A stretch of DNA of 25,241 nucleotides from Clostridia bacterium (lineage in GTDB: Bacteria > Bacillota > Clostridia > Oscillospirales > CAG-272): contig JAFOAB010000040.1 of assembly GCA_017382555.1 (NCBI GenBank), positions 1 through 25,241 of the forward strand, in the 5' to 3' direction. Numbering within the stretch: the stretch's first letter is position 1; the number at the start of each line of letters is the position of its first letter. Position numbers and translations under genes: made by a program. Positions 19,949-22,713 of the stretch are shown here, in pieces. The notes beneath the pieces were generated by a model that did no database searches, had not been told where the DNA came from, and was given only the letters and a program-made list of their open reading frames with translations.

Positions 19949-20008
19949 GTATGGGGATTATATCCCCTTAATAATTTAGATTATGACCCCCATAATAGAT
20001 AATGTCAA
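19949..20008. promoter_or_regulatory. Divergent promoter/operator region
   Basis: Minus-strand TTGACA (20003-20008)-17bp-CATAAT (19980-19985); palindromes ATTATG-N5-CATAAT (19980-19996) and GGGGAT-N3-ATCCCC (19953-19967). Confidence 0.65.
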
Positions 20009-20024
20009 GTTATGGAGGGCAATT

Positions 20025-20225
20025 ATGATAATTTTCGATAAGCTTTGGATCATTATGGAGCAAAAAGGCATATCCACCTATACATTGCGCGAAAAATGCG
20101 GCATCGACAGCAAAACCGTTCGCCGTCTTAAAGCGAATGAAAATATTGAAACAAAAACGCTTGATAAGCTTTGCTGTGCATTGGATTGCAAAATTGAAGA
20201 TATTGCCGAATACGTAAAGGAATAA
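20025..20225 (+). CDS. Cro/C1-type (XRE-like) HTH transcriptional regulator, 66 aa
   Basis: MIIFDKLWIIMEQKGISTYTL...TVRRLKANENIETKTLDKLCCALDCKIEDIAEY; GGAGG SD before ATG 20025. Confidence 0.9.
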   Translation: MIIFDKLWIIMEQKGISTYTLREKCGIDSKTVRRLKANENIETKTLDKLCCALDCKIEDIAEYVKE

Positions 20226-20263
20226 AAAACGCGCCCCGTGAGCATTTGCTCACGGGGCGTTTT
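20226..20263. terminator. Bidirectional terminator hairpin, twin B
   Basis: CGCCCCGTGAGCA-TT-TGCTCACGGGGCG with A/T tails; the outer arms are identical to twin A. Confidence 0.85.
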
Positions 20264-20463
20264 GCTATTCGTCTTCGGAATTATCCTCCTCCAAAAGCCG
20301 TTTTCTCGGATTATCCGATATGTAGTTTTTATGCTTGCGGCAGTCATCAGCATCGCGGATTATGTGGTCGAAATACGAGCGTTGAAACATTTTTTCAACT
20401 CCGCATTTTTCCTTGCACATTTTTGAGGTTATGGATTTAAAAGCACAAATGACATCATTAAGC

Positions 20464-20489
20464 GTAGGGGAGGGGCGTGCTCCTCCCGC
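20464..20489 (+). repeat. GTAG-type REP, copy 1 (inside the RAYT CDS)
   Basis: GTAG-GGGAGGGG-CGTG-CTCCTCCC-GC: a GTAG tag followed by an imperfect palindrome. Confidence 0.85.
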
Positions 20490-20655
20490 CCCTTCGGGCA
20501 CTATAATTATCGCGTGAATATGCTCCGGCATTATTACGTAATCGGATATTTTCAATCCGGTATACCGCTTTTCTAAGGCAAGCAACTGTTCTTTTGCAAT
20601 CTCGCCGCAGGGCTTCAAAACAACATTTGCACACATAAATGATCGATCAAGGATC

Positions 20656-20681
20656 GCGGGAGGAGCAAGCCCCTCCCCTAC
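20656..20681 (-). repeat. GTAG-type REP, copy 2 (inside the RAYT CDS, inverted)
   Basis: Reverse complement GTAGGGGAGGGGCTTGCTCCTCCCGC, 25/26 identical to copy 1. Confidence 0.85.
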
Positions 20682-20827
20682 CTCGTCATCGTTATCTTTT
20701 ACGGTAATTTCAGACAATATCGGTCTACGGTCCCGCACACAGATTGTTACAAAGTACATTCCTGCCAAACCGTAATCATACCCCTGCCATCTTGTGCCTT
20801 TCCTTTTCGGCAAATCCTTTTCCGCCA

Positions 20828-21862
20828 TCAGTCAAGCAGCTCATCCACGGAATAATAACGCGTATCCGCGGTATTGCCGCGCATATCGGTTACGGTAACG
20901 CGGATGCGGCCGTCATCCTTGGTTATCGGGATAACCGCGGAATTGATAACGTCGCCTGCCTTGGTGTAATTATATACGGAGCGGCCCTTTCTGAGGGGGC
21001 AATGCACCTTGATGGAGAACGCATCGGAGCAGCTTACGTACAGCTTTCCGTCCTCCACGTACAGCTCCTTTATCTCCGGTCCGCGGGAGGCATAGAAATC
21101 TCCATTCTTAAGAGACGCAAAGATATTCTCATACGTCAGGCTTTCCGCCTTTATCATTACCCACGCGCCGCAGGAATCGAATCGTGCGTGGCCGAGGGGA
21201 TGAACGTTGTGGTTATCGTCCGCCGCAACAACGTAAAGCTTATCCTTGCCATGGCGATACATTTCCTCATATACCCACGGAACGTAATCCTCATATCCGC
21301 CTACAAGGCAGGAGTAATTTGCTATCTCCATAGCATCCATACCCTCGTAGCGTACTATATCCTCGATATGCTCTCTTGACCAAACGGGATGATTGTAGGT
21401 AACGAAAAATCCGCTTTCCTTTGCGAGTGCAATGGCCTTATTTACGCATTCAACGGAATACTCTCTTTCAAAATCCGGAAGAGACTCATCAAACATCGCT
21501 CTGTCCTTATAATAGGGCGCATTGCCGAAGAGATATTTTTCCCTATGCCAGCACACCTGCTTCGTATCACTCTCGGTGGGGGAGATGAGGCACATATGCG
21601 CCGTGCGCTTTGAGAAGCCGGGTGCCGCAACGGGCTCGGTAAACTCCATCTCATAGCCCGTGAGGGGGAGAAACTCCTCGTCCTTTAATTCGGGATGAGG
21701 GAGCATAAGATCGTGGTCGGTAAATGCAACAACGGAGTAGCCCTTTTCCTTATACACCTTTTTTACTATTTCGGGCGGAAGCTTACCGTCGGACACGGTG
21801 GTATGGCAATGCAAATTAGCTTTGTAGAACTGACCCTCGTTTGGCAAAAGATACTTTCTCAT
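20828..21862 (-). CDS. PHP-domain metallohydrolase (CehA/McbA-like)
   Basis: KANLHCHTTVSDG, FTDHD, TGYEME, YNHPVWS, ADDNHN metal-ligand motifs. Start moved to ATG 21862 (GAGGAG SD). Confidence 0.88.
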   Translation of the reverse strand: MRKYLLPNEGQFYKANLHCHTTVSDGKLPPEIVKKVYKEKGYSVVAFTDHDLMLPHPELKDEEFLPLTGYEMEFTEPVAAPGFSKRTAHMCLISPTESDTKQVCWHREKYLFGNAPYYKDRAMFDESLPDFEREYSVECVNKAIALAKESGFFVTYNHPVWSREHIEDIVRYEGMDAMEIANYSCLVGGYEDYVPWVYEEMYRHGKDKLYVVAADDNHNVHPLGHARFDSCGAWVMIKAESLTYENIFASLKNGDFYASRGPEIKELYVEDGKLYVSCSDAFSIKVHCPLRKGRSVYNYTKAGDVINSAVIPITKDDGRIRVTVTDMRGNTADTRYYSVDELLD

Positions 21863-21873
21863 ATTTCCACTCC

Positions 21874-22713
21874 TCATAATAATATAGAGATAATAATTCC
21901 GATAACCGAAAGCGCACATCCGATAGCCGAGAGCGCGGTATATTTCTTTTTATACAGCACTGCGGATATCAGCATAACGAAGAATACGGACATACTTTCT
22001 ATCGCATTTACGATAACGATATTGGCATAAATAACTGCCCAGCCGGATAGGATCATTCCTGCGGCAACCATTGCCGCCTGCGCAAAATACGGCTTCACGG
22101 GCACGTTTTTCACGTCAATGCGAGGTCTTAGAACAGCAAGCAGAATAAGAAGCGCAATCACCATACTGAAGAAAAGCATGGTTTCGTTTGAGATAAGTCC
22201 GCGCTTCACGCAGGTCTTGAGTATGAACGGCTTGAACGTACGCGAAATAACGGAGATTATCTCGAAGATTATACCCGCCGCGCCCGTTCTGTCATCATTC
22301 TTGCTTTGGAAGTTGATGGTAAGCACGGCGCCGATAACGAACACCGCAATACCGATAACTCCGCCAAGGGAAAGCGTGTCGATAACCAGCACAAAGGATA
22401 CTATCATTGCAAGAAGCACCTTTGATTTCGCTATCATCTCCACGTGCACGGCATTGGAGTGCTTTACTGCAAGCTGATGGGTAAAAATATTTACCGCCTC
22501 AAGCACACCGTAGAGCAGCAGAAGACCTATGCATTCCGCATCAAGCCGCCAGTTAAAGAGCGACGCGATGAAAAAGATGGGGATAACGAACATTATCCTC
22601 AGCACCGTGTGCTCCTCGGCGGAACGGGTTCGCATTATTTTTTTGTTTAAAAGGGTATCAACCGCCTTGCTGAGGGAATCAAGCAAGGCAAACAAAAATC
22701 CCAAAACCGCCAT
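21874..22713 (-). CDS. DMT/EamA-family transporter
   Basis: 279 aa, about 10 hydrophobic helices in two repeats; GAGA SD; tightly packed between its neighbours. Confidence 0.8.
   Translation of the reverse strand: MAVLGFLFALLDSLSKAVDTLLNKKIMRTRSAEEHTVLRIMFVIPIFFIASLFNWRLDAECIGLLLLYGVLEAVNIFTHQLAVKHSNAVHVEMIAKSKVLLAMIVSFVLVIDTLSLGGVIGIAVFVIGAVLTINFQSKNDDRTGAAGIIFEIISVISRTFKPFILKTCVKRGLISNETMLFFSMVIALLILLAVLRPRIDVKNVPVKPYFAQAAMVAAGMILSGWAVIYANIVIVNAIESMSVFFVMLISAVLYKKKYTALSAIGCALSVIGIIISILL

Follow-up and report, generated by a model that had tools for sequence, protein, structure and literature searches.

TnpA_REP transposases (RAYTs) cleave their cognate single-stranded REPs in vitro and have co-evolved with them, and the Escherichia coli enzyme (RayT, yafM; 4ER8) requires a bulge in the REP, as reported in PMC8266576; in E. 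coli the REP/BIME elements flank the gene. Di Nocera et al. (2013; PMC3733652) described RAYTs with flanking REPs or TIRs, and also intragenic REPs in other genes. REPs lying in frame inside the tnpA_REP genes themselves were described by Quentin, Siguier, Chandler and Fichant (2018; BMC Genomics 19:475; PMC6006769) for subclass 2.4 (RAYT Group 4), in a sample consisting mainly of Cyanobacteria and Bacteroidetes, where the insertions are placed 'generally between HuH and Y' and are regarded as tolerated. Table 1 of the same paper gives subclass 2.4 the motifs NH[IFV]H, WQ and YIxNNP and a median length of 194 aa, together with an 8-aa insertion at alphaB and a variable beta3:alphaC insertion. 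The core phenomenon, in-frame REPs within RAYT genes, has accordingly been in print since 2018 (PMC6006769). For Group 4, the counts of Bertels et al. (2017) were restricted to flanking 16-mers, and the RAREFAN paper makes no mention of intragenic REPs. The main text of PMC6006769, figures aside, states neither a fixed site before the HUH motif nor an outward-tagged inverted pair, neither a match to the genomic REPIN layout nor preservation of the local hairpin, and neither co-divergence with the enzyme nor persistence without extragenic copies, and the comparative results given here appear to extend beyond that short description.

The window considered here, by which we mean the whole stretch of 25,241 nucleotides that was analysed, is contig C321 of a 1.9-Mb MAG (368 contigs, 69% complete), and it carries a RAYT-like gene with an inverted pair of GTAGGG-tagged REPs inside its reading frame. 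Its features are as follows, a slash marking a codon boundary.

20265..20828, minus strand: RAYT-like HUH/Y1 nuclease gene, 187 aa (from the ORF list, profile matches, AF2 and Foldseek).
20656..20681, minus strand: REP copy 1 (site 1), GTAGGG tag on the coding strand, frame GTA/GGG, read as VGEGLAPPA, residues 50-58.
20490..20655, minus strand: inter-arm spacer of 166 nt, residues 59-114, comprising a strand, helix 73-88, a strand and the HUH strand.
20514..20522, minus strand: HUH motif codons H103-I104-H105 (from the sequence; H103 and H105 are invariant in A1, an alignment of 56 sequences).
20464..20489, plus strand: REP copy 2 (site 2), GTAGGG tag on the template strand, the coding strand being read as GGARPSPT, residues 115-122.
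20310..20324, minus strand: Y169-I-S-D-N173, presumed catalytic Tyr and metal-ligand Asn of the YIxxNP motif (from A1 and the alignment to YIYINP of 4ER8).
20232..20259, no strand assigned: perfect 13-bp GC-rich hairpin with a T-run (an inverted repeat), between a convergent HTH gene (19983..20225) and the RAYT gene.

The sequence-only reading of this DNA had reported an inverted GTAG-tagged pair, alike at 25 of 26 positions and 166 bp apart in the coding sequence, translated in frame as VGEGLAPP and GGARPSPT on either side of YVIMPEHIH, and had seen no GTAG REP flanking the gene, and all of this was confirmed. The repeat finder returned arms of 26 nt each at 20464-20489 and 20656-20681, complementary at 25/26 positions (96%) and spaced by 166 nt; the ORF list places both in frame within ORF 20265..20828 (minus strand, 187 aa), where they bracket the HUH motif; and the ORF translation gives the two peptides with YVIMPEHIH encoded between them. 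The two copies are inverted with their tags facing outward, and since the 25-kb contig, which is the whole window, holds no further GTAGGG-tagged REP, the statement about flanking elements holds and the REPtron layout, with REPs flanking the gene, is not that of the window RAYT on this contig. The accompanying generalization that REPtrons carry flanking REPs is right for the E. coli type and incomplete for the class, given the in-frame REPs that PMC6006769 describes in subclass 2.4.

An inverted repeat of 26 nt with at most one mismatch has a chance expectation of 2e-9 in the RAYT-like gene, and the longest inverted repeat among 500 shuffles of that gene was 14 nt. REP copy 1 equals the genomic master sequence without any difference, and the sole mismatch between the arms is a G at 20477, a private loop variant in REP copy 2; this position is T in contigs of 4/4 gut metagenomes from four studies, so that the arms are 26/26 in those samples, and G20477 is either a private variant of this MAG or an assembly error. 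In the contigs of the same four metagenomes the RAYT gene is colinear, two records spanning it. The summed contig word depth rises over REP copy 1 (20658-20688) from ~5-8 to 310-529 in 3/4 of these metagenomes, which means that 31-mers of the window REP are very abundant in those three gut communities. The 166-nt spacer, searched with tblastn, has no second copy in its own genome. An assembly artefact was ruled out, as four independent metagenomes, one isolate genome and a complete 4.2-Mb chromosome show the layout too.

The start codon of the RAYT gene and the stop of an upstream PHP-like ORF (363 aa, 20828..21919, minus strand) overlap at base 20828, and the nuclease is probably the last cistron of a PHP-like operon, without a promoter of its own, while the hairpin at 20232-20259, which is not a GTAG REP, is probably a bidirectional terminator shared by the HTH and RAYT genes. 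The protein scores 22.7 bits against PF01797 (Y1_Tnp), below the gathering cut-off of 23, and only residues 89-172 align, because the inserts and an N-terminal extension interrupt the alignment; the NCBIfam equivalog NF047646 (REP_Tyr_transpos) likewise aligns to the C-terminal half only, at 66.1 bits for the protein and 56.8-72.4 in the genomic family search (whose control genomes included no cyanobacterium) against a cut-off of 80. A profile built from the 56 homologues of A1, however, reaches E. coli TnpA_REP (4ER8) at E 4.8e-13. N173 is invariant in A1 and Y169 is conserved in >=90% of its sequences, and this polar ligand lies four residues downstream of the tyrosine (YISDNP), as in HUH/Y1 enzymes; the roles of Tyr and Asn in the YIxxNP motif are those given in PMC6006769. 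The AF2 model, built with the homologue alignment, has a mean pLDDT of 90.1, and Foldseek returns 4er8_A first (E 2.9e-7), then the ISDra2 and IS608 TnpA proteins, all 30 matches at E<=1e-3 being Y1 transposases. In this model the HUH motif sits on beta-strand 103-110, the site-1 peptide forms a beta-hairpin loop between strands 39-44 and 66-71 (block pLDDT ~68-79), and the site-2 peptide forms the loop joining strand 103-110 to helix 123-142 (block pLDDT 73). The model thus places both peptides in predicted surface loops, as had been anticipated from the sequence, and these are its two least confident internal stretches.

The window protein resembles E. coli TnpA_REP in its HUH/Y1 fold and, going by PMC8266576, in enzyme/REP co-evolution; the REPs of both are GTAG-tagged imperfect hairpins with a stem mismatch, and the mismatch in the window family resembles the bulge required in E. 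coli. The E. coli REPs, however, lie outside the gene and those of the window inside it, and the E. coli protein has a six-residue gap in the profile alignment exactly at site 2 and is without the beta-hairpin that bears site 1 in the window protein. The intragenic REPs and RPE-type palindromes of PMC3733652 are also GTAG-tagged and translated in frame in protein loops, but they are scattered through unrelated host genes, whereas in the window clade they occupy the cognate enzyme gene at two fixed sites kept across the clade. Nor is the pair a REPIN in the sense of Bertels and Rainey (2011; PMC3116915): it is inverted, but its spacer is coding and unique and there is no extragenic repeated unit.

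The closest likeness is to subclass 2.4. As that subclass is described in PMC6006769, it shares with the window clade the in-frame REPs, a variable insertion that follows the HuH strand (beta3:alphaC), intragenic short tandem repeats, long or 'double foot' REPs tagged GT[AG]G, a length of ~190 aa and, closely though not exactly, the motifs N/E-H-[IFV]-H, W/F-Q and YIxxNP, and it differs in that the window clade belongs to gut Clostridia rather than mainly to Cyanobacteria or Bacteroidetes. The window gene itself has the in-frame REP insertions and the variable beta3:alphaC insertion, and its motifs (EHIH, FQ and YISDNP in 187 aa) come near to those of subclass 2.4 without being exact; the family consensus reads NHIH, FQ and YIxxNP, and the paralogues in the MAG read NHIH/NHFH, WQ and YIYENP/YIHENP. 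Matched by description, the window gene probably belongs to the TnpA_REP subclass 2.4 clade (RAYT Group 4) or to a close Clostridia sister of it.

The embedded element is one of many in its genome. Other contigs of the MAG hold 10 further exact copies of its 24-nt core, as well as near variants, and the reversed-pattern control gave 0 matches in the MAG, so the genome-wide count proposed for the 26-mer came out in favour of genuine REP family members: the 24-mer is a bona fide member of the MAG's GTAG-tagged REP family, and the genome thereby offers the gene a cognate GTAG-tagged REP family, as expected of a RAYT or TnpA_REP. Altogether the MAG contains at least 10 GTAGGG-tagged hairpin families with ~109 elements in total. 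An energy-based census (GT[AG]GG followed by any hairpin of <=-9 kcal/mol) was dropped, as it gave 563 matches against 873 in the reversed-genome control; a strict definition with the stem at the tag found 5 REPs only, and the working definition gave 164 matches against 88 in the control, for which reason only families with at least two members were counted. Of the 109 REPs, 54 fall in ORFs, mostly frames of 72-113 aa or open-ended ones, and the greedy ORF calls behind this figure take in 91% of the genome and cannot be relied on where contigs are short. The elements are often clustered in a BIME-like manner, with different families in alternating orientation, and these extragenic clusters are of mixed family, not homotypic REPINs. 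Four GTAGGG REP families alternate at ~22-25-nt spacing at C4:2397-2562, and similar clusters lie at C105:67-879 and C160:3993-4109.

Four more RAYT-like loci were found in the MAG by tblastn (C340, C343, C342 and C310). C340 and C343 are intact, each with a GTAGGG-tagged inverted pair of a different sequence at the two positions used in the window protein; C342 lies at a contig end with three tandem 30-nt REP units at site 1 (C342:18-197), read as VGDGASTSRI repeats, on which the assembly probably broke; and C310 is a truncated paralogue with diverged and decayed arms. The internal REPs of C340, C343 and C342 belong to separate genomic families, each being the master of its family or close to it; these families have at least 11, ~6 and ~8 copies. 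C340 also has a GTAGGG REP ~330 nt downstream of the gene.

Beyond this genome, homologues are present in 19/41 related genomes, and a scan of GTDB species genomes added 80 more homologous loci, mainly from Clostridia (Oscillospiraceae, Acutalibacteraceae, Ruminococcus, Gemmiger) with some from Chloroflexota, Desantisbacteria, Bacteroidota and others; a tblastn search of plasmids, aimed at named Cyanobacteria and Bacteroidota members, gave 3 weak matches. A GTAGGG pair brackets the HUH motif in 83/110 homologous loci, and because the sampled loci are related and mostly from Clostridia, these counts and those that follow are not independent. Site 1 is in frame GTA/GGG in 80/83 paired loci, and site 2 ends ..CCT/ACN (..PT) in 75/83, the remaining 8/83 using an alternative frame (..PLQ or ..PLR); the intragenic spacer ranges from 116 to 224 nt. 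Some family members, including most of the non-Clostridia matches, are without both inserts, which makes the inserts dispensable for the protein. Among 79 non-identical genes, compared over the 18 nt after the tag, the arms within a gene are 93.7% identical and those of different genes 42.5%, and 30 REP types can be told apart. With the REP peptides masked, genes whose RAYT proteins are more similar also have more similar REPs (rho 0.29; 0/2000 permutations as high), and site positions and site-1 frame stay constant across proteins ~30% identical and ~30 REP types. The expectation that the two insertions would sit at constant positions and co-vary with the REP family was borne out in the homologue alignment, both per genome and per paralogue, and the REP type tracks the RAYT phylogeny, the enzyme gene and its embedded hairpins being inherited and diversifying together.

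The relation of internal to extragenic copies was followed in five of these genomes by searching each with the five internal REP patterns, on both strands and with up to two mismatches. Apart from 4 and 2 related matches in G042, each pattern matched the genome it came from, and the matches were distributed as follows.

Gemmiger formicilis isolate (G041): 9 REP matches.
Complete 4.2-Mb chromosome (G042): 49 REP matches.
G020: 53 REP matches.
G044: 15 REP matches at ~8 sites.
Anaerolineales MAG (G043): 4 REP matches, all at the two internal sites.

Most of the extragenic copies in G020 and G042 are homotypic inverted pairs with tags outward, and these REPINs share that orientation with the intragenic pair; only the REPs themselves match between the two, not the coding spacer. 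The 2.1-Mb MAG G043, by contrast, has no extragenic copy of its internal REP, and in G015 (98% complete) the internal REP is confined to the gene, with no other copy in the genome; there the gene (L020:1614-1905) carries in-frame tandem hairpin units of 27 nt, three of them at site 1 and two at site 2. The internal REPs of G043 (L087) are perfect 'double-foot' palindromes (GTAG...CTAC), so that both sites encode the same peptide, VGAGLKPAP. The window REP type, for its part, is multi-copy among the 41 relatives only in the five genomes whose RAYT carries it and in one 72%-complete MAG; it is a single degenerate copy in two further genomes and absent from the remaining 33.

Each arm in the window forms an imperfect hairpin of 6 bp, a G.T mismatch, 2 bp and a short loop, with a DNA folding energy of -5 to -9 kcal/mol that is no better than that of composition-matched shuffles. 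The 'palindromes' first seen in the sequence stand as GTAG-tagged hairpins, then, but each is imperfect and energetically unexceptional, and the case for the hairpin is drawn from comparative covariation, which points to its preservation, and not from energy. Of the differences between arms of the same gene, 24 are compensated double changes in the local hairpin, 4 are wobble-preserving single changes, 34 affect the loop or bulge, 42 lie outside the hairpin and ~14 break the stem, several of these at doubtful outermost pairs. Internal stem mismatches on the GTAG strand are G.T in 21 cases and A.C in 0, again in related sequences whose counts are not independent, and a G.A stem mismatch recurs at one fixed position; this pattern is in keeping with a hairpin whose relevant strand is the one bearing the tag and which includes a recognition mismatch.

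Considering these observations together, we lean, if only somewhat, towards the reading that the embedded pair is the co-inherited cognate substrate pair of the encoded RAYT, of the subclass 2.4 clade or its sister, kept alike and hairpin-competent and linking enzyme and substrate. The gene holds two copies of the genome's own GTAGGG REP hairpin, in frame in two surface loops before and after the HUH strand, and we infer from sequence that these would be cognate single-stranded substrates that the encoded enzyme binds and cleaves. What keeps the arms alike and able to form hairpins may be selection for recognition, homogenisation driven by the enzyme or by template switching, or both. Intragenic REPs would keep enzyme and substrate physically linked, a single gene could persist with, and possibly seed, a REP family, and self-binding or autoregulation might follow as a side consequence. 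A bolder and more tentative proposal, which we think rather unlikely in its full form, is that the gene by itself makes up an autonomous REPtron, with the intragenic pair as its heritable master REPIN; if so, enzyme specificity and substrate would be transmitted together, vertically or by transfer, the unit would survive without extragenic copies and could found or replenish a REP or REPIN population, and the enzyme itself would keep both arms recognisable.

The main rival to the substrate reading is that the inserts are tolerated and without function: the RAYT acts preferentially in cis, its own REPs recurrently enter or replace each other at two permissive loops, and the likeness of the arms reflects turnover from the genomic pool. 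This is essentially the reading of Quentin et al. (2018), as their main text presents it, and we regard it as possible though distinctly short of probable. Members without inserts exist, both sites are low-confidence loops in the AF2 model, and the arms of C310 are decayed, as is that paralogue itself; the two frames at site 2 and the tandem in-frame expansions at C342 and L020 fit recurrent insertion and the substrate reading equally well. Further points against the substrate reading are that compensated changes can come from quasipalindrome template switching without selection, that the inserts are dispensable for the protein and that the local hairpins of the window REP are energetically unremarkable. 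However, tolerated insertion does not explain persistence without an extragenic donor, as in G015 and G043, and against it stand also the constancy of positions and of the site-1 frame over such divergent proteins and REP types and the co-divergence of REP type with protein. The two fixed sites, this co-divergence, the preservation of the local hairpin and the two genomes with gene-only REPs argue that the inserts are more than accidental.

An improbable alternative is that selection acts on a long-range 26-bp mRNA stem between the arms, which would hold nuclease levels down by hampering translation or by providing an RNase III site. In the minimum free energy fold of the 238-nt RNA the two arms do pair with each other (-99.1 kcal/mol, z -6.05, 0/200 shuffles as good), and the within-gene arms are 94% identical, so that the stem suggested by the sequence-only reading is thermodynamically possible, but where arms differ, it is the local hairpins that stay intact and the long stem that is broken. 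Every one of the 24 compensated double differences leaves the local hairpin paired and puts two mismatches into the arm-arm duplex, from which it follows that the maintained unit is the individual REP hairpin; in several genes the arms differ at 3-5 of 24 positions with both hairpins intact. Similarly, the asymmetry of G.T over A.C follows the GTAG strand, which is mRNA-sense at site 1 only, and the same hairpins occur extragenically as DNA repeats.

Far less probable still is a DNA switch, in which the catalytic segment is flipped or cut out, either by recombination between the two inverted copies or by the RAYT working on them. A flipped segment would bring in stop codons and loss of the 218-nt unit a frameshift, either of which amounts to an OFF state; nevertheless 83/83 paired loci are in the ON orientation, and the deletions or inversions between the copies that had been proposed found no support, as no such joints occur in contigs of the 4 metagenomes (4 studies), where the two records are colinear, which is weak evidence given that contigs drop rare variants. 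Both the mRNA stem and the DNA switch are possible side effects, less likely as explanations, and not what the comparative data preserve. That the peptides are conserved for protein reasons, with an incidental inverted repeat, is scarcely credible and was rejected: VG.. and ..PT are consensus columns of A1, but these are dictated by the GTAGGG tag, the residues beyond them vary freely (VGEGLAPP, VGTGVLDCP, VGAIHESP and others) while the DNA remains an inverted pair each time, the same 24-mer is repeated extragenically, and the REP type co-diverges with the protein.

For the question of how REP and REPIN families originate, stay matched to one RAYT and persist for long, the window clade offers a compact and testable system: with one gene and two hairpins, synonymous recoding would allow effects of the protein to be told apart from those of the DNA. 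Among its relatives, G020 (L119-L127) holds ~25 homotypic REPINs of ~124 nt in both orientations, with a conserved spacer of ~75 nt and a single cognate RAYT. That spacer shows no relation to the coding spacer; a 12-14-nt A-rich match lies beside REP2, but its relative arrangement differs, which leaves derivation from the coding spacer unproven. G020 would be a clean REPIN population for study.
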